Part shown: piece after piece, positions 4,171 to 52,803 of the stretch
How positions within the stretch are numbered: position 1 is the first letter of the stretch
Layout: each line of letters starts with the position of its first letter
Assembly: GCA_951406725.2 (NCBI GenBank)
Contig: OX597819.1
Coordinates: forward strand, 66,402,001-66,466,000
DNA length: 64,000 bases
Reading direction: 5' to 3'
Source of the DNA: Octopus vulgaris
Lineage: Eukaryota
Translations under genes and position numbers: made by a program
The notes under the pieces: model-generated
The model's input: the letters and a program-made list of their open reading frames with translations, nothing else
Database searches by the model: none
Told to the model about the DNA's origin: nothing

Positions 4171-4305
4171 AGTTGTGTCACGCAGTTTACAACTTTATTT
4201 TATATAAAGTTCTATATTTCAGAGACGAGGAATTCTGTGCATTATTTTACATTATTTACATTATTTATATTTGACGGATATTTGTCCTCATCTTCTTTGT
4301 TGTCT

Positions 4306-4349
4306 ATACAACGTTTTCGCTGCTGTACTCTCCAGCCTTCATCAGGTGT
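4306..4349 (-). ncRNA. Minimal hammerhead ribozyme motif (degenerate)
   Basis: ACAC-CUGAUGA-A-GGCUG..CAGC-GAAAAC-GUU-GUAU. Confidence 0.6.
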
Positions 4350-4399
4350 CCTTGGGAGAATTTCGAACCTGGGTTTTCATTCCTAAGGTATTTTTCCGA

Positions 4400-4720
4400 T
4401 GGTTAGAGCGTCGAGCACACGATCCTGAGGTTGGGAGTTCGATTCCCGAACCAGGCTGCATGTTGTGTTCTTAAGCAAGACACTTCCTTTCACGTTGCTT
4501 CAGTTCGCTCAGCTGTAGAAATGAGTTGCAATCTCACTGGTGCCAAGCTGTATCGGTCTTAGCCTTTCCGTTGGATAACATCGGTGGCGTGGAGAGGAGA
4601 GGCTGGCTGGTATGCAGGGGTGACTACTGGTCTTCCATAAACAACCTTGTCCGGACTTGTGCCTCGGAGGTTAACTTTGCAGGTGCAATTCCATGGTTAT
4701 CCATGACTGAACAGGGTCAC
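4400..4720 (+). mobile_element. tRNA-derived SINE family 3 (head A + tail Y), 5'-truncated
   Basis: Colinear with 27769-28107. Confidence 0.8.
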
Positions 4721-4886
4721 GATTATTGTTATTATTTCTCAGGCCATTGCCTTGGAATCGAACTCGGAATCTTAAGGTTAGCAGCCCGCGCTCTTAACCA
4801 CTACGCCTTATGCCCGTTTTATATTATTATAAAACTTCGCCATAATTAAGTGGATTGTCAAATTGCTGTTTCACATTGAGAAGGGT

Positions 4887-15612: not shown

Positions 15613-16799
15613 CGGTAAAAAAAAGCAAATTTACAAACAATATTCGCTAGGAGGTCTCATGCCGACATCACTTTTAAAAATACAAATATGACTGTAAAAA
15701 CGAAAATCAGACGAGCAGCCTCAGACAAGAATGTTCAATGCATTTTGTCTTTTACGTAGAATGTACTCAATGACAGCCGTAAAATAAAAGAAATCCGTCG
15801 CTACAACTATAGGAAAAGTCTGTGAGCAACAACCTAGATTTTGTTGTTGTTTTTTTTTGCGATTTCTTGTAGTCTTTTGTCTCTTATTTCAAGGTTTGTT
15901 ACAACTGTGTAAATTCGATTCGCGGAGTTCAATGGAATGAAGAACTTGATGTAAAAGAGGCGTGATCACGAGTCAGTAGGTTTAAAATATAGTCCTCTTT
16001 CTAGTATTGTACTTCTATTAGCAATTAATATATCTAAAAAGGGTGCGACTGGTGGGGTTATCGTTACTGAACTTCATAGTGAATTATATAAGAGAGCTTT
16101 ATGTTGTTGACAAAAAAAAATATTTTAATTAATTCAATCTAATTTAATTGACCGAGACTCCACACGTTTGTGATTGAACACCGAACATCGTGTTTGCAAA
16201 GCGAACTATTTTACCACGCAGTCATGTCTGTAATCTCTTTCCTTTTTTTCTCTCTCTCACACACACAAACAGCGATTTGTGTTTGCTTAAATAACTGCGA
16301 ATATATTTTACATTAACTTTCACTGGCTTTCAATATACAATACTTGCTTCAGTTCCGAGTTTACTTTCCTTTCTAGCATTTGTATTAAAGTGAGTGTTTC
16401 TATGCGTGAGTTAATATCTATGTGTCTGTATTTGTCTGTGTGTCTTTTGTTGTATAATTTACGTTTGCTGCAGGGAAGTATTAAATTAAAAAATAATAAT
16501 AATGAATAAATAAATAATTTTAATATTGAAATTAAATTTTTTTTTTCACTCACAAATTAACCTTTTGTGATAATTGCATTAAAGTAAGCGATTAGATATT
16601 TACTATTGTGAGAAAAGCTATAGGGGGATTTCATCTGCAATCTCAGCATTTAATCACATCTAAGTATACTCATTACACACATGTATGTAAATGCGAAGTG
16701 ACGGGCAGAATCAATAAGATTAGATTAAACTATAAAGTACTGTATGTAATGCATTCCATTAGTTTGTATGAGGTGACTTTTCGTTCTCCGGTTCAAAAC

Positions 16800-16838
<39 letters not shown>

Positions 16839-16844
<6 letters not shown>

Positions 16845-17135
16845 AGTGTGGCTGCTTGGTAAGAAGTTTGCTTCTTAACAACATAGTTCCACGTTCTGCA
16901 ACACGGTGTGTTACCTTGAGCAAGTTCTTCTAGTACAGACCCTGCCCGTTAGAAGCCTTTTGAGTGGATTTGTATACGTGCGTAGTTGTCCTTGTCCTCT
17001 ATTAACACTTGACACCCGGTGTGTGTTTGTTCATGTCACTCTGACACAGAGGTTCGGCAGAAGAGTAGGCAAGGAGAATATGCAGGAGGCTTTAAAACAA
17101 CAAGTACTGGTGTCGATTCTTGCGAATAAGATGTA
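16839..17135 (+). mobile_element. SINE family 2 (tRNA head, CORE-like), degenerate
   Basis: gtggctgcttggtaagaagtttgc...ccttgagcaag...tgagtggatttg. Confidence 0.6.
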
Positions 17136-18660
17136 ATTCTCAATACCGAATTGCTTTAATATTATGTACAATGTATATCCATATATATATATATTCATTT
17201 TCATATAGATAGATATGTGCATACACAGACACACACAAGGTCCGAACAGTTGTTAGAAAGCGTTGGAAAGAGGTCAGATTGTAGTAAGAAATAATTTCTT
17301 CTAGCACTTAAAGTCCTCTGTTGAAATCGAATCTATCATACCGTTTTCTTTTATCCTTTAGGTATTGAAAATGTCGTTGTACCTGTGATGAGGAGGAAAA
17401 CAACATATTAAAAGATAAGACGAAAATTCCCGTTAGTGGTTTAGCAATTTTATAGTTACTCGAATGATTACTGCCAGGTCGATTTCCTTTCTTATTAGTT
17501 CTCCTGCGTGGTGTATTTGCTATGTACGATATATTCATATTGAAACCGTTTCGCTTAATACTTAACTTGTTCCCTGGTGGTAATAAGAAATTTTACGTGA
17601 TATATTTTTCCATAAAATCATATTAAAAAATCATAGGATTGCCAGAGCGTTTATTGAAGAAGTGCTCATATTAATTAGGTGTCTTCTATTGATAATACAA
17701 TTCGCTGTTTTAACTGACAACCATTTAAATTGTCTACTCTGGATTTTCTTCACATTGACGTTTATTTCAAGGTCAGTAAGTATATTATTCATAACTTCCC
17801 ATATCGGAGGCGACACATCTAACCTCAGCATGTGGTTGGCTACAAGTACACGTCATGGACAACGTCAAACGAGGCCAAATTGCATCTGGAGTGATTTTTC
17901 CTCTCACGCAGGACACCCATAAAGAATTATATTTAGGGTGAAATCTGCAATAGTTCAAGAAGATTCTAACAGTTTGAATTTATTCAATGAGTTTGGTAAT
18001 TTATTGGTAATTTATTGTTCCTTTGCAATATCTGCTTAGTCTTTCTTAATTCAAAATATTTTTCCTACTAACAACGTTTATTATACAAACCTTACGTTGA
18101 TTTACCACATACCATTAGACCTCTAAAATGTTTTCCCTTACGTCATAATGAAACGTAAGTACGTAAACATGAAGCAATTTCCTAATGTAGCCCTGCTATC
18201 TTGTCGTAGAAGATTATCCTACTCATGGCCCTACTTCCTCTGATGTTCTTCTTGATTTGAAACGGTGGTAAATTCTTCCTATACATAAGTGTTGATATTA
18301 CAAATGAAAGTGTTGATATTACAAATGATTCCCAAAACTTTTTATCCTATCCATAATTGGAAACACAATTTCATATTAATGCGCTACACTGCAACGTCTG
18401 TCATTTTCTAATGTGTGAGAGCTTATCAAACTCATTGAATAAATTTCTACTGCAATATATAAAGGCGATGGCTGACAGACGTGACTCACTGTTGATAGTA
18501 TTAGATTGATCTTTAAGATCAACTAAACACAAATTTATATTTTCGAATTCTTCGCAAAAGATGCTTGGCGCAGGTCTAACCGTTCTCTTTCATTTTTGAC
18601 ATAGATATGCGTTTGGGTATTCACGATTGCATGTATGCATTCATGCATACATACATATAG

Positions 18661-18890
18661 GCGGCGAGCTGGTAGAATCGTTAGAAGGCCGGGCGAAATG
18701 CATAGCTGTATTTCGTCTGCCGTAAGGTTATGAGTTCAAATTCCGTCGAGGTCGACTGTGCCTTTCATGCTTTCGGGGTCGATAAATTAAGTACCAGTTA
18801 CGCACTGGGGTCGATGTAATCGACTTAATCCGTTTGTCTGTCCTTGTTTGTCCCCCCTATGTTTAGCTCCTTGTGGGCAATAAAGAAATA
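18661..18890 (+). mobile_element. SINE family 1 monomer
   Basis: ggcggcgagctgg... to ...gggcaataaagaaata. Confidence 0.85.
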
Positions 18891-18919
18891 CATACATACA
18901 TACATACATAAATACATGC

Positions 18920-18964
<45 letters not shown>

Positions 18965-19759
18965 GTGTGTGCGTTTCTATGAATCATACATACATATGCA
19001 GAAATATACACACACGCACACAACAATATATCTGTTCAAATCTATAGCGATAAATCTGTGTCGCACTCAATTGCGTGTATACATACTATGCATTTACGTA
19101 TGCGTGAATGTATATACACATGTATACATATGTGTGTGTGCGTGTGTGTAAGCGTGCGTGCGGCCGTGTGCATTCACGTGATGTTAACAAGATTGTTGAA
19201 ACGAAGAAAAAACTCATTGCACACTTTAGTTCACATTTATGCTGTCTCTATTCACCACTAACCAATCGCGTTTCCTCAGATCAATAAAATGAACAGCAGA
19301 CAATCTCCTAGAACACATTCACTTGGTTATAGCAATGGAACTTAGTGGCTCAGTCCGATCGCAAAATTTATTAAATTTCAAGTGTTTAGACGCCGTAAAA
19401 TTGATATATTTCTCGCAAATCATATAATTTATATTTCAGCCAATCACGACAATATATCACTGGCCTGTGTTGATGTATAACTTTGTGTCATGAATGTACG
19501 GTTAAAATTTAATAGCTCAATAGAGAAATAAGGAATTAAATGTTTCTGCACATGTTATTACATTTGAAGAGAACGTTCGTTTATAACAAAAGAATTACAT
19601 CAATTTCAAATTAAAGAGGTCTCGTTAGACTTGGTGCGGTTGTAGCCAAGTTTGTTTTAAAAATATAGGACTTACGTATGATTGAATTCTGAGAAATAAT
19701 TTATCATTGAAAAGAATCTGGAAATCTTTGCAATTTCTGCAGCAATAATATCTTATAAA

Positions 19760-19921
19760 GACGATGGCATGGATGTCAGGTTAAGAAGCCCGCTTTGTGA
19801 GCACGTAGTTTCGGACTTTACCCCACTGCACGATACCTTGGGCAAGTGTCTTCTACTCTAGCCTTGGGCCAACCAAAGCCTTGTGAGTTGATTTGGTAGA
19901 TGGAAACTGAAAGAAGCCCGT

Positions 19922-19966
<45 letters not shown>

Positions 19967-20167
19967 TTGTGTCTGTGTTGGTCGCCCCTACCATCGGTAG
20001 AAACCGATACTTGTGTGTTTACGTCGCCGCATCTTAGTCTTTCAGCAAGAAAAGCCGATGGAATAAGTGTTCGGCTTACACAGATTAAGTCTTGGGGTCG
20101 ATTTTTTCGACTAAAGGCAGTGCTCTATCATGGTCGTAGTCAAATGACTGAAACAAATAAAAGAATG
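19760..20167 (+). mobile_element. SINE family 2 with internal (TA)n
   Basis: ccttgggcaagtgtcttctac...gaaactgaaagaagcccg (TA)n ...agtcaaatgactgaaacaa. Confidence 0.8.
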
Positions 20168-20219
20168 ACGAAATTTACTACATATAGTAAATGTTTGCGA
20201 CCATATAGGTTATCTATAG

Positions 20220-21607
20220 CAGTGGTTCTCAAACTGGGAACCGCAGTCCCCTAGACAACTGCGAAAAGATTTTAGGGGAACACAAAAGAAGGCTGAATTA
20301 TCGTGTAAACTAGGTGATTTGAGACAATTAAGTTTTAAATTTTAAGGCTTTCAATTTTTAGCTTTCTTATTTCTTTTTGCCCACAACGGTCTAAACGCAG
20401 ATGGGACAAAACAAGGACAGACAAACGCATTAAGTCGATTACATCGACCTCAGTGCGTAACTGGTACTTATTTAATCGACCTCGAAAGGATGAAAGGCAA
20501 AGTCGACATCTGCGGAATTTGAACTCAGAACCTATCTGCAGACGAAATACCTATTTCTTACTACCCACAATGAGCTAAACACAGAGGGAACAAACAAGGG
20601 CAGACAAACGCATTAAGTCGATTAAATCGACCCTAGTGCGTAACTGGTACTAAATTTATTGACCCTGAAAGGATGAAAGGCAACGTCGACCTCGGCGGAA
20701 TTTGAACTCAGAACGTAGCGGCAGACGAAATACCTATTTCTTTACCACCCACAATGAGCTAAACACAGAGGGGACAAAGAAGGGCAGACAAACGCATTAA
20801 GTTGATTACATCGACCCTAGTGCGTAACTGGTACTTATTTAATCGACCCCGAAAGAATGAAAGGCAACGTCGACCTCGGCGAAATTTGAACTCAGAACGT
20901 AGCGGTAGACGAAATACCTATTTTTTTACTGCCCCCAATGGGCTACACACAGAGGGAACAAACAAGGACAGACGAACGGATTAATTCAAATACATCGACC
21001 CCAGTGCGTAACTGGTACTTAATTTATCGACCCCGAAAGGATGAAAGGCAACGTCGACCTCGGCGGAATTTGAACTCAGAACGCAGCGGCGGACGAAATA
21101 CCACAAAGCATTTCGCCCGGCGTGCTAACGTTTCTACCAACTCGACGCCGAGTTTCTATCATCCTTTTTAGCTTTCTATCATCCATTTTCGTCGTTGGCC
21201 TCAAAAACCCATGCCACTACAACGCACTCATTTGTTAATCACAGTTGCTGTACAACAAGTGAGACTGACCAAAGAAAATATGCGTGTATAATTGGTTAAT
21301 CGTGCATGTGCTGTCAGCATCTTCTCTTCTCATTGTTTTGTTACCAATTTAATCAGCTGATTCCCTATAATTTCATGTGCTTTTATTGTATCCTAATGGG
21401 CATTTCCTGGTTTAAGTTGTGGTTTTCGGGTCTGTAAGTCTATGGGCAGTGAGGTTCATAGTCCGGAAATTACGGTACACGAAATTATTTCCTTTTTTTG
21501 TTCCATGTTGTTTATCCTGCATTTTATAGGGGACCGTGAATTGTCGAAAAAGCTGTAAGGGGACTGAACTGACATGTAATATCTTTTGAAAAGTTTGAGC
21601 ACCACTG
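20220..21607. mobile_element. Non-autonomous hAT (Charlie/Buster-like) element
   Basis: TIRs cagtggttctcaaact / agtttgagcaccactg; 8-bp TSD atctatag (20212-20219) / atctattg (21608-21615). Confidence 0.8.
20368..21150 (-). mobile_element. Tandem tetramer of SINE family 1 nested in the hAT element
   Basis: gacgaaatac recurs at 20541, 20724, 20908, 21092 (period 183-184 bp). Confidence 0.9.
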
Positions 21608-23304
21608 ATCTATTGTATTAGGTATAAGAAAAACACAACACTTCTATGCGTCTATCAGAAATATACACAAAATAACCGTATGCACATACACACACTCACA
21701 GCAGCAGCACACTACAAGATAGGAATAATGTATATACTTAGTAGCAGTTAAACACACAATTATACACAAACACAACCAAACTTATACACACCCTCACAGA
21801 CATACACGTAGAATCACAAACACACACACATGCACAATAATATTCAGACTCATAGATCTAGAGAAGCACACGGAAAACCCGTCAGTATCATGTGTCCATA
21901 ACATCCATACTGCATTTGGTCATGGAGCACAAATGGTAAAACTAAACATATAGTGTTTAACCATCGATTGCCATTGTCAGTACCAACTTAAGTTTGACTT
22001 GAATAGCGTGAATTCAAGTTTAAGTAAGATAATGCGAGCACAATACGATAAGTTATTCATACACTGCGATACCTGTAATATAATTATATACACTGAGATA
22101 TTTCTTAATCGTTGGTCTTAACAGCGAAGCATTGTGTTAGTGGATATAGGAAATATTCTATGGACAGGAAGTATTTATGCCAAATTTTTGAATGAAATAT
22201 GGTTTCGATAAGATAATTAGCGACGAAGTTGAAGAACCTCTAACGACTCAGTTGGTTGTCTGCTAATCTATTTTATCGACTTGTATATCCGCACGCACAT
22301 GCATACACATATATACACGCACAAATGCATATACATACACAGAAAGTACGGAGAGGTAAAGAAAACAAAAATAATTAGGAAGATTGCATGCGAACATTGT
22401 GAAATTTCTGACAGTAGTGCAAGATATTACGCAGATAATTAAATCTTGTGCGAGGTTCATCCGGTTACATTTATCAAACTGATTTGGTCGTGGTTTCACT
22501 CCATAACCTTCAAACACTGTAACGTTCTCTTCTCTTGTAGGTCATCTGATAAACACATTTATTGTTTGAACGGTATCATGATATCTATCTCGATACTGAT
22601 GCTATTCTTCTTCTTCTTGTAGTTGTTTTTGTTGTTATTGTGCATTTTGTTTTCTATTCGCTCAGAAAACTTTTATCTGAAATAAAAGCTATATGTCACA
22701 TTCTTGAGGCATCGATTTAATTTTGACCAGGCAAAAGGCCAAGTTTTACAAGCATATATTTTGCAGCGGTAGATCAGATTAAGATCGAAAGAAGACATTC
22801 TTAAACTTGCACGTGTGGGAGAGATATAATGGATTGAGTTTACCTGCGTACATGGACAGCAATGGCACTCATCCTTGCTGGGATTGCAAATATAAATATA
22901 TAAAACTACAAAATACAGGAATATGTTGCAACAAACACAGTACGTTCAAAATTATATTCAGAGAATTAAGCTCCGTAGCTCTGTAGTAAGAAATTTGCAT
23001 CCCAACCACGTGGTTCCGAGTTCGGTCTCACAGCATGACACCTTGCACCTTGGACAAGTGCCTTCTGCTATTGCCTCGGGCTGTCCTACTCGAATGCGGA
23101 AACTGAAAGAAGCTCGTTATATATGCCCCAGAATTTCCACAGTTTAATGACTGAAGGAAATAAAGATGCTTATTCGATCTTCACCTGTGTATTATATGTA
23201 ACATCTAAATGGCACCTTTGTGGAATTTAGATGTTACATAGATGTTATTTAGAGTAGGATTAACTCTCTCACTCTCACTGTCTTTTTCTCGCTTATATAT
23301 AAAG

Positions 23305-29041: not shown

Positions 29042-29695
29042 GACCGTGTGTATATGTGTATATAAGTTGCGTATTCTCTCATCTGTTAGATTGTTATATC
29101 TAAAATATTCTTTTCGCAGTTATAAAATTCCGATGATAAAGGAGATTTCAAACGGATTAAATATTCTCGAATAATGTAGCTGTGAATGCATAATTATAAT
29201 TTAATGCATAGGGATAGCATTTTAAAAAGAACAGTCGATCAATATACGAGTCATCGGTATGTTTTATCAAAAGATATGGAAAAGAATTACTACATTTTGT
29301 TTAAAATCCAGCTCATTTTAAAAAAATTACCACAGAGGAAATCCAGAGTTGAATTACGATAAATTTGTGTTATTATACCTACACATGCCTAATAAATGAT
29401 AATGTACCAGCTCAATCTTTCTCGGCGGTTTCGTTGACGGTTTAGCTATTTATGTTCTCATCTATGTATGCTTCTACCTGTCTCTCTTCATCTGTCTGTT
29501 TGCCAGTCTACATTCCGGTGTACAGGGCAGTCCACGTTGACTTGGCTATAAAGAGTACCTTTTGGCAGTAATAGCGCTTTCGTCTCTAATAATAATAATA
29601 ATAATTATTATTATATATACATGCACGTATTGAACTCAGAACCTCGGGATCGCAACCCTGATGCTCTACCACTAAAACATGCACCTACATGTACA

Positions 29696-30263
29696 TAGAG
29701 GTTGGCCCAAAAGTAGGTCGACAGTTATCAAGTAGGCACTTGAAATTTCTTTTAAAGCATTTTATTACATTAAAATTTCTACATTATTTACATTCGACGG
29801 ATATTTGTCCTCATCTTCTTTCTTATTAACACAAAGTTTCGGCTGATATATCCTCTAGCATTCTTCAGATGTTTTGGGAAAACTTCAAACCTGGGTTCTC
29901 ATTCCTAGGATATTTTTCGATATATTCATTATTATTATCATTATTATTGTTGTTGTTTTTTAGGTCATTGCTTGTAATCGAGCTGCGACTCATAGGGTTA
30001 GTAGCCCGCGCTCTTAACCACTACGCCATATGTCCGTGGGCATATCTGTCGAATGTAAACAATGTACATAATTCCTCATCTCTTAAATATAGGACTGTAT
30101 TTAAATTTCTATCTTACAAACTGAAAAAGGGATCTTGACAAAATTAACTAAATTAGCATAGAATAATGATTTTATATTTTTATGTAATTAAGATCTAAAC
30201 TGCTAATATGTCAATGCGAAAGAGATAGTTAAATAACTGTAAACCTACTTTTGGGCCACCCTG
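29696..30263. mobile_element. Tc1/mariner MITE interrupted by HHR-SINE
   Basis: TIRs ggttggcccaaaagtaggtcgacagttat / ataactgtaaacctacttttgggccaccctg, followed by TA. Confidence 0.7.
29775..30100 (-). mobile_element. tRNA-headed HHR SINE, copy 2, with inverted tail duplication
   Basis: Head 29960-30040 (tggcgtagtggttaagagcgcgggctactaacc); HHR 29829-29872; tail copy on plus at 30042-30098. Confidence 0.75.
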
Positions 30264-30294
30264 TATAAAGAAAAGTTTCTTGTAAAAGTTTCCA

Positions 30295-30515
30295 TGTGAT
30301 GAGTTGTAGTAAAAAATATATACAAGACAGAAAAGACAGAAATTTGGTGTTGAAAAAATATATTTATCAAACAAAACATTTACATAGTCGATTGGTTTAC
30401 AGTTTCGCTTATGCTATTCATTGGCCAAACAAGAAAACCACTTGACTATTTAAGTATTTTATTTTATGGTTATATTTTTACAACACCAAATTTCTGTGCA
30501 TTTACCTTCTTGATG
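30295..30515 (-). mobile_element. HHR-bearing repeat, copy 2 (core mutated to CCAAUGA)
   Basis: Colinear with 27530-27750. Confidence 0.6.

Positions 30516-37969: not shown

Positions 37970-38014
<45 letters not shown>
37700..38014 (-). mobile_element. SINE family 2, 3' half
   Basis: cagtcatttggctgcgg...gccgaaccg...aaacacaccagc, then (TA)n. Confidence 0.7.
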
Positions 38015-38016
<2 letters not shown>

Positions 38017-38019
<3 letters not shown>

Positions 38020-39641
38020 TGGCGGCCAAAATGTTCAGAACGGCATTGTTTTCATCAGAAAAGTAGATATAATCTTTTATCAAATTTGTTTTATATTCTA
38101 TAATTTTCACAGACAATAAATACGATATTATTTGTTACTGCCTGAGATTTTGTTGTAATTTGAGAGGATAATACAAAAGTTATGGATGATTTAGTGATTT
38201 ACTGCAAAACCCATGGCGGCCAAAATGATCAGAACGGTTGCTTTTACTCCGTGTGTTAGTATATTTAACCGGCGAACTCTAATGTTTTGAATTTGTTTAC
38301 GTGACGGTTCGTTTACTAAACATTAGTAAGAATATTTGCAGTGTACTTTGTTAATATAATGCCACTTACTCCGTTACTAATTCGTCAGCAGATTATTAAG
38401 CTTCGATGGAAGGATAATTTAAGTATTGGATCTATTGCAAAGATTGTTAACAAGTCAAAAAGTGTTGTACACGGTATTCTTAAGGTATACGATGATTGTG
38501 GTTCGTGTGAAGCAAGACATTTTACAGGTAGGCCAAGAAAAACGACCAAGAGAGAAGATCGTGCTATGGTAAAGTTGGTTAAAAGGGACAGATTTAAAAC
38601 TGCTGTTTCTCGGAAAATGAGCATTGTATTGAAGAAAACTTTATCTCGAAAAACTGTGTCTCGTCGTTTAGTTGAACATGACCTACAAGCAAGAGCACCT
38701 GCAGTGAAACCACTGATCAGCTCCAAGAATAAAAAAAGTGTCGTCTTACCTTTGCAACCGAACATGTGTTGTGGTCTCAAGAAAAATGGCAAACGGTGCA
38801 TTTCAGTGATGAATCTAAGTTTATGTTATTTAGCTCAGATGGGAAAAGGTACGTTCGTAGAAAAGTAGGTGAAAAATTGTCGCTTAAATGCCTTAAGACT
38901 AGTGTTAAATTCGGTGGAGGAAGTGTCATGGTTTGGGGAATGATATCTGGAGATGGTGTGGGCCTTTTGGTGCGATTACATGGAAAGGTAAATGCAGGAG
39001 TTTATAAACAACTTGTAAAAGATCACGTCTTGCCTGTGCTGAGAAATTCAACTAAGCGACCACCCATATTCATGCAGGATAATGCCCCATGTCACAAGGC
39101 GAAGGTGGTCATGAACTTCCTCAAGGCTGAAAAGGTTATTGTTATGGATTGGCCAGCTCAAAGCCCAGATCTCAATCCTATTGAAAATGTATGGAATATT
39201 CTAGAAGAACGTTCGAAAGCCAGAAATCCTAAAACAACTGAGCAATTATGGAATGCCCTTCAGGAAGAATGGAATAAGATCACCCAGCAAGAAATTGAAA
39301 ATTTAATTTCCTCATGCAGTCGAAGATGTCAGAGTGTAATTGAAGCTAAAGGGCTTCACACTAAATATTAAATAATTCCAGTATTCTCTGTCATTTTTTA
39401 TTATTTTGTTATTTTTTCAACCGTTCTGATCATTTTGACTGCCATGGGTTTAGCAGTAGATCACTAAATCATCCATAACTTTTGTATTATCCTCTCAAAT
39501 TACACCAAAATCTCAGACAATAACAATTCATATTGTATTTACCGTCTGTGAAAATTATAGAATATAAAACTACTTTGATAAAGACGTATACTTACTTTTC
39601 TGCCGAAAACAATGCCGTTCTGAACATTTTGACCGCAACTG
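38017..39641 (+). mobile_element. Tc1-family DNA transposon, IR/DR type, 1625 bp
   Basis: ~225-bp TIRs beginning CAGT; inner and outer direct repeats ggcggccaaaatg(t/a)tcagaacgg; inserted in (TA)n. Confidence 0.95.
38359..39371 (+). pseudogene. Tc1 transposase (DD34E) with one frameshift
   Basis: HTH region with GRPRKTT; FSDESKF, QDNAPCH, WPAQSPDLNPIE (34 residues between D and E); frameshift at A-run 38731-38737. Confidence 0.92.
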
Positions 39642-39752
39642 TGTATATATATAATATATATATATAAACATATACATATAGTAAATACAAAAAAAAAGAA
39701 GAACGAGAAACACAAAAACAACAACAACTCTCGGGGAAGGAGAGAAAAGTGG

Positions 39753-39785
39753 TTTTATGTTTCGAGCAACGCTCTTCTTCAGAAA
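39753..39785 (-). ncRNA. Minimal hammerhead motif in repeat between (TA)n tracts
   Basis: UUU-CUGAAGA-A-GAGC-GUU-GCUC-GAAAC-AUA-AAA. Confidence 0.6.
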
Positions 39786-45969: not shown

Positions 45970-48870
45970 TCCTAACACAGTGTAGGCAAAATTACATCGG
46001 TGTCTTTAGTCATCTGTCAAGTTACAACAAGGATCTCGGACAGATAATACTTTCATTAAGGTGTGCGCTGTGCCTAGTAAGGCTGCTTTTTGCAAGACAT
46101 CAATCTTGCTTGGGATTTCCAGTTGCCTTAAGTAGTTTTGAAGTTTCAATGGGTTTGAGCCCAACGCTCCGATTACCACTGATATCACTTTTACATTACC
46201 CTCTCGCATCCCATACACTTCTACTTTCAGTTTGGAGTAATTGGTGATTTTTCAACCTCTTTACTCATAACATTCCATATAGTTCCACTTTCAATTCGGA
46301 ATACCAGGTGATTTTTTCAACCTCTTTACTCACAACATTCATGTAATTTAGTATGGCTACATCAATGATCTGACTGTATTTGTCTCGCTTATTCAATATG
46401 ACAATATCCGGCCGAAGGTGTTCGATTACACGATCTGATTGGAAATATTAGTCCCAGAGTATCGTTACTATTCCATCCTCTTGCATAACTTTACTTGGTA
46501 CATGCTCATACCAGTTCTCTGTTACTTTATATTGTTATTTACGGCAAAGGAGCCAATAAAAATACACACAAAATTTATCGTGGCGGGATTTGTTTTCTTT
46601 TTGTGCAAGGTTCTCAAATCCACTTACTAAGTGCGTCACATTTTCCACACTCTTTCCACAGAGCCTACATTTCTGGGTGTCTGAAGTTTAATAGATGTTA
46701 TACTTCACTGAATTGGTAGCGTGAGCCTGGTCTTGTGCAGCAATGATCAGGTTTTCAGCGGTACCCCTCAAACCATCTCACTCATGCTATGCCCATGACG
46801 CTGTATTAACCTGAAAGTCCTGTTTATTCCTTTTAAACTGTCCATGCATTCTAATTTCAAGGTCTTCTTTTCTCTTCTCAGCTCTTTGGTTAAACTCCTC
46901 CTTGCTCATCATTTCATCTGCATTTACACCCATATCTTTCGCGGCATATTTCAGCAGGTCTTCATCACTATTTATCAGACAGTCGGCAAGCGTTCTCTTT
47001 TCGCTCCTTATACAATGGTCTATAGTAATTAGTCCTCTGGCACCATTCTTTTTTCTCATATACAGTCTGTTTACATTTGCTTTCGGATGCAGCGTCATGA
47101 ACTTTCTCGTCCTTCTAGCCTGTGTTGATATTTCCTCCTTAGTCCATTCGAGGATGGACGCACTATATCTGACCACCGCAACGGACCAGATATTCATTGT
47201 GATAAACAGATTTTGGCATCCAGGTTGGATTTCAACACCATCTACACCCTTTTTTGTACGCCTCGCTGACCCTGACTTTCACTTCTCTATTTAGAATGTC
47301 ATCCAGCTCCAAAATCCCTAAATATCTATACTCACTACCGTCGGATTCACCCATGGTCTCTCCTGATGGTAACTGCAATCATCTGCAGGCTGCTTTCTTC
47401 CCTCTTTTTATATTAAGTACTCAGCATTTGGTAATCCCAAATTCTATACCTATATCCCTAACAGATATCTAGGATATTTTGGTTAAGGAACCTCTCTGTT
47501 GTTCAGGTTTCCCAAATAAATTCAGGTCATCCATAAACAGAAGGTGGTTCAATGATAGGACTTTCTTCCCACATCGGTAACCCCTCTTAACTTTCCTGAG
47601 TGTCATTGTTATGGGTATCAGTGCAATTACAAATAGTAACGGAGAAAACGAGTCCCCTTGAAAGCTGCTCCTTGTAATATTAACTTCTCCAAGGAATACA
47701 TTACTTGAGACAATTTGGTTTTCTACTCTTTCATGCTATGCATCAGAAAATTTGTGATATTGTCAGCAACACCAAACATATGCAGGCATTCAACGATCCA
47801 AGAATGAGGCATCATATAATATGCCTTCTTAAAGTCAATCCAAGCCATAGACATGTTTGCGTGGTGTTTTATACAATGCCTCAAAACTGTTTCATCGATG
47901 ACCAGGTGATCCTTGGTACCCTGTGAACTCTTTCTACATACTTTTTGTTCATTTGTAGTATTTCGTCCTGTGCCAGGAAAGTGTGTCTTTGCTGCACATA
48001 TTCCAGTTAGTATCTCCCTGATTATATTTAGGCATGCTATGGGCCGGTAGTTTCCCACAATATTCCCCTTATAAGTGCTGTCCTCCCAATCACCATTGCT
48101 CAATTTTATCTAGATCTTGCCTTGCCCGCACTATGTCCCTTTCAATCCATCGTTTCCACCATGGTTCTTTCGTTCCACCATTTTATTCTCTTAAGTTGTA
48201 ATTTCTCCTCAACAATGAGCGCAATAGCTTGTGTTATGTCCTCCGTCTGGATGTGTGATATTACAGTATTTATCTTTTGTGTTACTTTGTTTATCATACT
48301 CCTATCTACCTTTCTCATATTCATAAGGCTTTTTTTCTTCTGGATCATTTATGAAGTCGGTGAGTCGTCTTTGAACTTCAAGCAATTCATTATCTAGTTT
48401 GTTCATTCCCCCTGCATGTCCACCAACCACAGTATCAGAGTTCACTGTATAACGTTCTTGTTCATTATCCTTAACAACCGCATCACTATTTCCTTGTCCC
48501 TCCTGTCTGCTCTTTTCTCTGCTTTCAACTCTTACCTCTCTATTTTCAACTCCGACAATCCATTGTAGCCCATCCGCAGGATCTCTCAGACTCTCTCACT
48601 AATCCGAGATATTTCTACTCAAGTTAAGTAACCCTTCCTCCTAATCACTCTCACTTGGTTCATTAGTTTATTTTCTGACATTGGACACATGTCCTTTTCC
48701 ATCCAAAATTTCAGGGTACGTCGGCCTACTCCGCAACTTCTCTCCAGCTTTGCTCTTTCTATAAGTGTATCGTACTCTTCCTTCGTCCACTTACGTCTGT
48801 TTTTGCACTCACCTTGTATGTGATCTGTTGTGACATCTCTTTCGTCGCTGCCTCAGTAAATATTACTCGT
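45970..48870 (-). mobile_element. R4/Dong-clade (RLE) non-LTR retrotransposon, decayed
   Basis: N-terminal RRKWTKEE...ENKLMNQVRVIR; RT motifs NYRPIACL, AWIDFKKAY, QGDSFSPLLF, NHLLFMDDL; RLE RPDIVI; C-terminus VVIGALG...LQKAALLGTAH; 3' end abuts (TAA)n. Confidence 0.88.
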
Positions 48871-51523: not shown

Positions 51524-52803
51524 CGAGGGGCGCTCAATAAGTAATGCCCTTGACCCACTTCCCATAGCAGTAGAGCAACGAAACTTGGCACAGTTATTAG
51601 TCTTTTTCTACATAGGAACCACCCAGAGTTACGCATTTCTCCCATCGTTTGATGCGGCTCTGGAGACCGTTTTTGTAGAAGAACCCAGCTTGGTCCTCCA
51701 ACCTCAACGTGACTTCAGAAATCAAGGCTGCATCATCTGGGAAAGGCTTTCCTTTCAAAAACAACTTCATGATTGGGAAGAGGTGAAAATCAGAGGGTGC
51801 AAGGTCAGGAATAGGGAGGAGTTCATAGCCATACGCCTGTGCTTCTGATCTGGCGACAAGCGAGTTGTGGACCGGAGCGTTGTCCTGCAGGAGGAGGATG
51901 CCTTTGCTGATCTTGCCCCGCCTCTTGATTTTGATAACTTCTCTTAATTTCCTCAAAAGTAAAGCATAATAGGCTCCTGCAATCGTGGTACCCTTTGCCA
52001 GAAAATCTGTCATCACTACTCCGTCCTGGTCCCAGAAGAGTGTGAGCATGACCTTGCCAGCGGAGGGCTGCACCCTTGCCTTCTTTGGAGGGGGTGAGTC
52101 ACGGTGCTTCCACTGCATTGACTGGGCTTTGGTCTCTGGATCATCGTGATGGACCCAGGTTTCATTCTGTGTAATCAGTCTTTTGAAAAATTTTGACTCA
52201 TCTTTTTGGCACATCTCCAAATTCACCCTCGAGCACTCGACGCGTTCTTGCTTCTGGAAAGGCGTGAGCAACCTGGGAATCCATCTGGCAGACACCTTTT
52301 GCATATGCAAATGGTCATGAATGATAGTTTCCACAGACCCGGTACTAAACTTGACCTTATGGGCTATTTGGCGAATAATTATGCGTCGATCTTCCAAAAT
52401 GGCAGCCTCAACTTGACGGACAGATGCCTCATCAATGGCAGAAGGGGGCGACAAGATCTGGGAGCTGTTTCCACAGAGTTCCGACCATGTTTGAATTCAC
52501 GATGCCAGCGTTTTACAAGGTCATATGATGGGGCATCATCACCATAAGTTACTTTCATTTCATCAAAAGTCTCCCGTGGTGTGCGTCCTTTCAAATACAA
52601 AAACCAGATCACTGCTCGACACTCAACAGGCTCCATTTCACACTCGACTCAGTTCAAACACCTGTAAATCAGAAACCACAATTAATTCAGAGCTGTAATT
52701 TGCCACTTACTCTTTAGAGATATAAATGATTGCACATGCAAAAGTGCAGGTAGATCAAACAACTGCAAGTGGGTCAGAGGCATTACTTATTGAACGTCCC
52801 TCG
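51524..52803 (-). mobile_element. Full-length mariner transposon, 1280 bp
   Basis: ~37-bp TIRs cgaggggcgctcaataagtaatgcccttgacccactt / aagtgggtcagaggcattacttattgaacgtccctcg; TA TSD both sides. Confidence 0.95.
51597..52636 (-). pseudogene. Mariner transposase (irritans-like), inactivated
   Basis: ARWIPRLLT, QNETW (first D>N), QDNAPVH, PDLAPSDFHLF with 4-codon deletion; frameshift at G-run 52444-52448. Confidence 0.9.

Follow-up and report, generated by a model that had tools for sequence, protein, structure and literature searches.

Copy 2 of a short, tRNA-headed, non-coding repeat of Octopus vulgaris arose in one insertion event, likely made by a Penelope-like element (PLE) RT-endonuclease acting on a likely Pol III transcript. 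The element is likely a SINE-type parasite of PLEs, not of LINEs. In copy 2 and its family, the hallmarks of PLE insertions (an inverted copy, truncated at its own 5' end, next to the element's 5' end, an optional tail with two fixed 3' ends, a junction palindrome, a short target-site duplication (TSD) and a minimal hammerhead motif) are found together with those of SINE2 elements (a tRNA-like head containing an A box and a B box, in a short, non-coding, dispersed repeat of many copies). The following features were located; the window is the whole 64-kb stretch of DNA that was analysed, and positions are counted from its first letter.

4205..4816, minus strand: copy 1, with a direct arrangement of head, body and tail that another repeat interrupts at ~4720-4397
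29695..30266, strandless: host of copy 2, a small non-coding inverted-repeat transposon (recognised by its arms and its multi-copy contig depth)
29769..29781, plus strand: left copy of the TSD, the last 2 nt of which are in common with the element end
29780..30036, minus strand: main arm, i.e. full-length copy 2, which stops at the inner 3' end and is without the tail
29828..29875, minus strand: minimal type I hammerhead motif of copy 2 (descriptor, and majority letters read by hand)
29925..29962, minus strand: AAT/AAC-rich spacer of copy 2
29964..30036, minus strand: tRNA-like head of copy 2 (motif scan)
30028..30045, strandless: 18-nt palindromic stretch spanning the inverted junction, with 7 of its 8 arm pairs intact in copy 2
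30042..30066, plus strand: inverted copy of the 25 nt that terminate the main arm
30067..30099, plus strand: optional 33-nt tail, on this arm only, ending at the outer 3' end
30099..30111, plus strand: right copy of the TSD

Read on the minus strand from ~30036 to 29780, copy 2 consists of the tRNA-like head, the AAT tract and a body with the hammerhead motif. The element has a length of ~290 nt and the whole copy 2 unit one of 320 nt; no RT or GIY-YIG ORF was present near this unit in the window ORF list. The bodies of copies 1 and 2 are identical at 114 of 139 aligned bases. Head and body are joined in both window copies; the contig comparison described below skipped the AAT tract, so this linkage refers to these two. 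Both copies are monomers which begin at the head and lie dispersed within the window. The flanks of copy 1 are AT-rich and contain a weak candidate TSD of 7-8 nt. The element is a short, non-coding, dispersed high-copy repeat with a tRNA-like start.

In the head of copy 2, the A box is intact (30028-30018) and the B box (~29983-29974) is decayed, the latter being intact in copy 1 (4763) and in the contig majority. A sense-strand TTTT is missing from copy 1 and occurs once in copy 2, at a site where the majority letter differs. Based on the A and B boxes and the scarcity of T runs on the sense strand, the element is likely transcribed by Pol III.

For the contig survey, all contigs of four public runs (out of 24 listed; organism labels A, A, B and D) were compared at 80% likeness with the stretch 29640-30420 as reference (781 nt, host repeat included), on which 16,374-22,030 contigs were placed per run. 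Depth over head and body, counted in contigs and not equivalent to a copy number, was thousands of times that of the unique flank. The joints and loose ends given below are the best-supported ones, besides which a further 170 joints and 1,580 loose ends exist. The contigs are fragmented, and all contig frequencies represent a biased sample.

The host transposon has inverted arms of 34 nt (29695-29728 and 30233-30266), an end pattern which we take to be Tc1/mariner-like. Within it, main and inverted arm are together bracketed by a direct repeat of 13 nt (12-13 bp) that contains a single mismatch; an equally good repeat at both ends was obtained in 13 of 200,000 random draws with local composition. 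Empty host paralogs were found, among the joints listed, with position 29781 joined to 30142 in four of four runs (1, 5, 6 and 6 contigs) and with 29778 joined to 30125 in three of four (2, 1 and 2 contigs). In run X11, the bridging letters at one empty site are equal to 30112-30117, and those at another agree with 30109-30123 at 12 of 15 positions. Among the host-repeat contig pieces listed, 9/32 start at 30099. Since the empty sites carry the target once, the 13-nt repeat is a true TSD around both arms, and main and inverted arm of copy 2 are one insertion event into the host transposon. It is highly improbable that two separate insertions of one family came to adjoin by chance. The family is indeed very abundant, as the number of contigs placed per run (host repeat included) indicates. 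Chance adjacency was nevertheless largely refuted by the single TSD around both arms, by the empty sites, which lack a second duplication, and by similar junctions recurring at other loci (see below); furthermore, at the junction the start of the head forms a palindrome.

PLE copies had been expected in the first-pass annotation to be without a conventional TSD. This expectation failed, as a TSD of 12-13 bp is present here and PLEs do make TSDs. Absence of a TSD was dropped as a PLE criterion, since inverted PLE insertions in rotifers are flanked by TSDs of 8-10 bp (PMC3846280), shorter than the one found here. Because TSDs flank published inverted PLE insertions, the presence of a TSD cannot separate PLE from LINE either.

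The inverted arm had been recognised as a duplicate of the element's 3' tail at the 5' end of copy 2, and this was confirmed for the 25 nt at the end of the main arm, to which plus 30042-30066 is identical at 23/25 positions (BLAST against the 64-kb window, E 1.6e-5). The wider claim was that the whole of 30042-30098 duplicates the copy's own tail and matches copy 1. Its second half stood as well: between plus 30052-30099 and the final part of copy 1 (4253-4205), identity is 84% over 49 columns (BLAST, E 2.5e-9). In contrast, the 33-nt extension at 30067-30099 is missing from the main arm and is present on copy 1, so that part of the arm cannot be a duplicate of the main arm's own end. The tail had no other match within the 64-kb window, LINE remnant included. 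At the inverted junction, the eighth pair of the palindrome is completed by the majority letter at 30033 (~95% of contig depth). The right half of the palindrome (30038-30045) equals the initial 8 nt of the head, read on the opposite strand, and the word ATAT is common to this half and the inverted arm.

Insertions of this kind are known from PLEs. Those of rotifers show an inverted pLTR, a TSD of 9-10 bp, a single-arm tail of 31 bp and palindromic junctions (PMC3846280), and the same layout has been described as general for PLE insertions (PMC8557442). In vitro, purified PLE from an anole nicks AT-rich DNA on each strand and extends both nicked strands; it uses two RNA start sites, the spacing of which corresponds to the tail, and hammerhead cleavage is dispensable (PMC11167929).

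Taken by itself, the layout of copy 2 formally also fits twin priming on one RNA. Copy 2 would then be a tRNA SINE mobilised by a LINE in the ordinary way, with a 9-nt tandem repeat at its end; the tail would be the 3' flank of a master locus, and the inversion would be due to L1-style twin priming. A TSD of 12-13 bp agrees with such an origin, and the inner end of copy 2 does lie within a 9-nt tandem repeat, resembling the ends of LINE-type SINEs. Twin priming on one RNA produces an equal layout with a 25-nt overlap, and octopus has active LINEs of the RTE, CR1 and L1-Tx1 types (PMC13282606).

The contigs bear on this explanation by the position of the ends. Twin priming starts at scattered sites, whereas the inner start site is fixed: loose ends at 29780 were found in 518, 360, 352 and 438 contigs of the four runs and were the commonest in each of them, with continuations which are mostly long and mutually dissimilar. 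Loose ends at the outer 3' end (30099/30101) were found in 128-163 contigs for each position and run listed. The outer end has neither poly(A) nor a repeat, poly(A) being absent from the element's 3' end altogether, and the element did not match the LINE remnant of the window. Loose ends were also observed at 29995, within the tRNA-like head. Beyond 30101, the loose ends of three runs share their first four or five letters, which hints that some copies extend a few bases past the outer end.

Inverted and tandem forms recur at other loci. Further inverted junctions, among those listed, connect 30029 with 30062 (3 and 1 contigs in two runs) and 30032 with 30067 (one run). Contigs ending at 30045 numbered 91-168 in four of four runs, and their majority continuation reads as the head on the opposite strand; longer head-to-head pairs recur, unless the palindromic contigs are library fold-backs. 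Head-to-tail joints from 30041 to 29780 and from 30044 to 29780 were present, among the joints listed, in one run each. Tandem hammerhead units are absent from the copy 2 locus, and tandem joints are rare in the contigs of the family. In run X11, 83 contigs proceed from 30042 into a common sequence (agreement 0.68), possibly a lineage-specific amplified junction.

A profile of window pieces was searched against 1.84 billion proteins. Of 44 matches, the low-complexity match P0019 was excluded. The remaining 43 are chance ORFs, 19 of which run through the element's family (by best score) and 24 through related families; three low-scoring matches assigned to the sister group may belong to the element's family. 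The last unit carries the tail in 19 cases and is without it in 18, with 6 undecidable; the corresponding numbers are 5, 10 and 4 in the element's own family (n=19) and 14, 8 and 2 in the sister families (n=24). These calls depend on score cut-offs set by the analyst, two of the cases without tail end short of the inner end, and a missing tail may reflect frameshifts or earlier truncations in what is a biased sample of ORFs. An antisense piece of the own element lies directly upstream in 5/43 ORFs (P0004, P0009, P0029, P0036 and P0039; 0-1 of 500 shuffles), a sixth antisense match of 4 residues being discounted. The frequency of inverted or tandem tail forms had been put forward as a check in the first-pass annotation; both forms recur, in the contigs as well as in the chance ORFs.

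The sister family has the same two 3' ends and a homologous tail and lacks the 9-nt repeat, and several of its matches contain two or three tandem units. P0005, P0009, P0011, P0012, P0015, P0017, P0018, P0026, P0029 and P0033 represent one or two sister families with a homologous hammerhead-plus-tail module, the units of which, ~43 codons each, are often arranged head to tail. That a family without the 9-nt repeat possesses both ends and, by the calls above, a homologous tail speaks against a SINE end defined by this repeat. Further points against LINE mobilisation are the PLE-type minimal hammerhead ~50 nt ahead of the inner end and a tail unmatched elsewhere in the window. Together with the fixed inner start site and the plain outer end, they leave mobilisation by a LINE improbable, and insertion by PLE enzymes is preferred.

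The frame starting from the ATG at 29902 crosses hammerhead and tail and is open in the Octopus bimaculoides copy P0002 (a 51-residue chance ORF). It faintly resembles the ORF start within the end repeats of PLEs. By a rough estimate, an open stretch of 52 codons in one of three frames is expected by chance in ~7 of 100 cases. The open frame was dropped as proof of a coding origin, as database matches are selected for open frames. No longer protein beginning with the read-through peptide was found in protein searches. Searches of metagenome, viral and prokaryote collections yielded neither a motif of the family nor the sister-family proteins.

The hammerhead parts of copy 2 comprise the core CUGANGA (29868-29862) and GAAA (29840-29837), with the cut predicted between 29833 and 29832. 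In this copy the motif is decayed, helix II and the palindromic position of helix III being damaged. A hand-written type I descriptor matched twice in the window (at 29868 and at one other position), compared to a mean of 0.3 in 20 shuffles; it misses copy 1 owing to that copy's own changes. Rfam reported neither a hammerhead nor a tRNA at copy 2, ARAGORN reported no tRNA, and the fold of copy 2 was no better than that of shuffles (z 0.64). The majority letters of the contigs, read by hand, give a helix I of 5 pairs, a helix II of 5 pairs preceded by a bulged base, and, where helix III would be expected, a stretch that is complementary to itself. PLE ends contain minimal hammerheads with a bulged base and palindromic positions 15.2-16.2 (PMC4209133), and the majority hammerhead of the family would, by its letters, be this minimal form. 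The term 'ribozyme-bearing', as applied to the element, refers to this putative motif. The listed hammerhead of Hydra-1_oBim is different from that of the element.

The predicted cut lies ~200 nt past the head and ~50 nt ahead of the inner end. Cleavage there would separate the promoter from the start sites, so full-length copies would need uncut RNA. This matters for a second explanation, in which the repeat is a PLE derivative or retrozyme stemming from read-through or tandem arrays via self-cleaved or circular RNA, and the head is a passenger or serves the next unit, as may be compared with SMalpha. Head-to-tail joints do occur in the contigs, sister-family matches often consist of 2-3 tandem units, and retrozymes have been proposed to be non-autonomous PLE derivatives (10.64898/2026.07.22.740005, PMC7229834). 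However, both window copies are monomers extending from the head to 50-95 nt beyond the predicted cut, for which uncleaved RNA would be required. Moreover, A and B boxes are retained, copy 1 is free of sense-strand TTTT and the single one of copy 2 falls on a site diverging from the majority, and the hammerhead is minimal, a type reported as a poor cleaver alone. An origin from cleaved or circular RNA is therefore considered unlikely.

Mobilisation by PLEs, as proposed in the first-pass annotation, is supported by the empty sites, the two fixed 3' ends 33 nt apart, the recurrent inverted and tandem forms and the minimal hammerhead. According to the mechanism we propose, the PLE protein would introduce two nicks into AT-rich DNA, one per strand and 12-13 nt from each other. 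One of them would prime cDNA synthesis at the inner start site (29780), extending to the 5' end of the RNA, and the other would prime at the outer one (30099), which lies 33 nt further 3'. Both cDNAs would then be joined head to head via the palindrome. The shortness of the second arm could be due either to a template jump at ATAT or to a later loss between two ATAT words from a full palindromic pair, and gap filling would yield the TSD. As for the hammerhead, it would have come along as a passenger when the PLE end module was borrowed, and it would be largely inactive in monomers, because a cut would sever the promoter from the start sites.

An autonomous PLE partner with the same module was not found by protein searches and the profile search, and no RT was present among the 44 profile matches (29 scanned in Pfam). 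Two short motifs of the element were absent, by exact match in which line breaks may hide occurrences, from the consensus file of Naiad, Chlamys and Hydra elements (PMC8557442).

The DNA of the window is rich in microsatellites and contains further repeats. The segment 60474-62008 consists of inverted arms of 609 nt, 99% alike, with ends near (TA)n tracts and an inner inverted repeat, and each arm has a hammerhead-like core around a long hairpin (plus strand, from ~61688). An inverted insertion of PLE type, young and unrelated to the element, is likely here, the alternative being an assembly artefact. A second minimal hammerhead-like motif, unrelated to the family of copies 1 and 2, lies amid microsatellites at 39782 on the minus strand and is likely another PLE end piece. 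A different abundant SINE-like family occurs at 480-1241, 20433-21149, 50595, 59890 and other positions, with head-to-tail runs of four units ~184-216 nt apart. In addition, a Tc1-type transposon with 236-nt inverted ends (38005-39653), a decayed LINE with an RT domain (46787-48600) and a mariner transposase remnant (51597-52496) were observed.

The element was compared with known systems. Endonuclease-bearing PLEs (Penelope/Poseidon, Neptune; PMC3846280, PMC8557442, PMC11167929) are alike in the inverted 5'-truncated copy, a tail of 30-40 nt on one arm, the junction palindrome, the short TSD, the AT-rich target, the minimal hammerhead near the 3' end and the occurrence of tandems. Unlike them, the octopus element has no RT or GIY-YIG ORF, measures ~290 nt and carries a tRNA-like head in place of the pLTR promoter. 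The schistosome elements SMalpha and Sjalpha (PMC6765202, PMC4918200, PMC8490949) share the tRNA-like Pol III promoter, the type I hammerhead and the short non-coding repeat. SMalpha differs by a canonical active hammerhead and by tandem multimers which lose the promoter on cleavage, whereas, comparing by description, the octopus motif is minimal and without a closed helix III, and the window copies are head-bearing monomers. The PLE-type insertion anatomy of the octopus element is not reported for SMalpha in the available portions of these three papers. Animal non-LTR retrozymes (PMC7229834; 10.64898/2026.07.22.740005) are likewise short non-coding hammerhead repeats and proposed PLE derivatives, with tandems as in the sister family. 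They are defined by tandem units and circular RNA, and no tRNA head is reported in the accessible parts of these sources, whereas copy 2 is a monomer with an inverted arm. Finally, tRNA-derived SINEs and the TRIMp3 elements Helenus, Ajax and Cassandra (PMC10886601) are also non-autonomous retroelements with a Pol III head derived from a small RNA. SINEs borrow the ends of LINEs and TRIMp3 elements the machinery of LTR elements, whereas the octopus family appears to borrow a PLE end. The TRIMp3 work describes Pol III-headed passengers of LTR elements, and its available text makes no mention of Penelope (PMC10886601).

The insertion scar itself is a known textbook feature of PLEs; less ordinary is a tRNA-headed high-copy SINE with a PLE end module. 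Octopus SINEs named OK, OR1 and OR2 were reportedly described by Ohshima and Okada in 1994. These SINEs are cited in PMC4758252 and PMC4824008, where OR1 or OR2 is termed a CORE-SINE. No description of a tRNA-headed, PLE-mobilised octopus SINE was found in the open literature; such a family may be catalogued in Repbase, Dfam, SINEBase or the 1994 paper. It is not described in the available text of the octopus repeat papers PMC13282606, where the word 'ribozyme' occurs 0 times, and PMC8967140. For the giant squid, 235 hammerheads are reported, with no context given in the portion available (PMC6962438).

There is about an even chance that octopus genomes contain a group of undescribed 'PLE-SINEs', in which a Pol III tRNA head is combined with a PLE hammerhead-and-tail module and which were amplified hugely by PLE enzymes. 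If true, small-RNA promoters would be known in three combinations with retroelement classes, the other two being SINE-LINE and TRIMp3-LTR, and a cis-element of <150 nt would be sufficient for two-site priming by PLEs, the ribozyme being silent in monomers. Part of the 'unclassified SINE' share of octopus genomes would in that case be mis-assigned. Thousands of short natural insertions would allow tests of the two start sites, of head-to-head and palindrome formation, of TSD length and of hammerhead cutting. SINEs are held to depend on LINEs, and a tRNA-headed high-copy family with PLE scars would broaden this rule.
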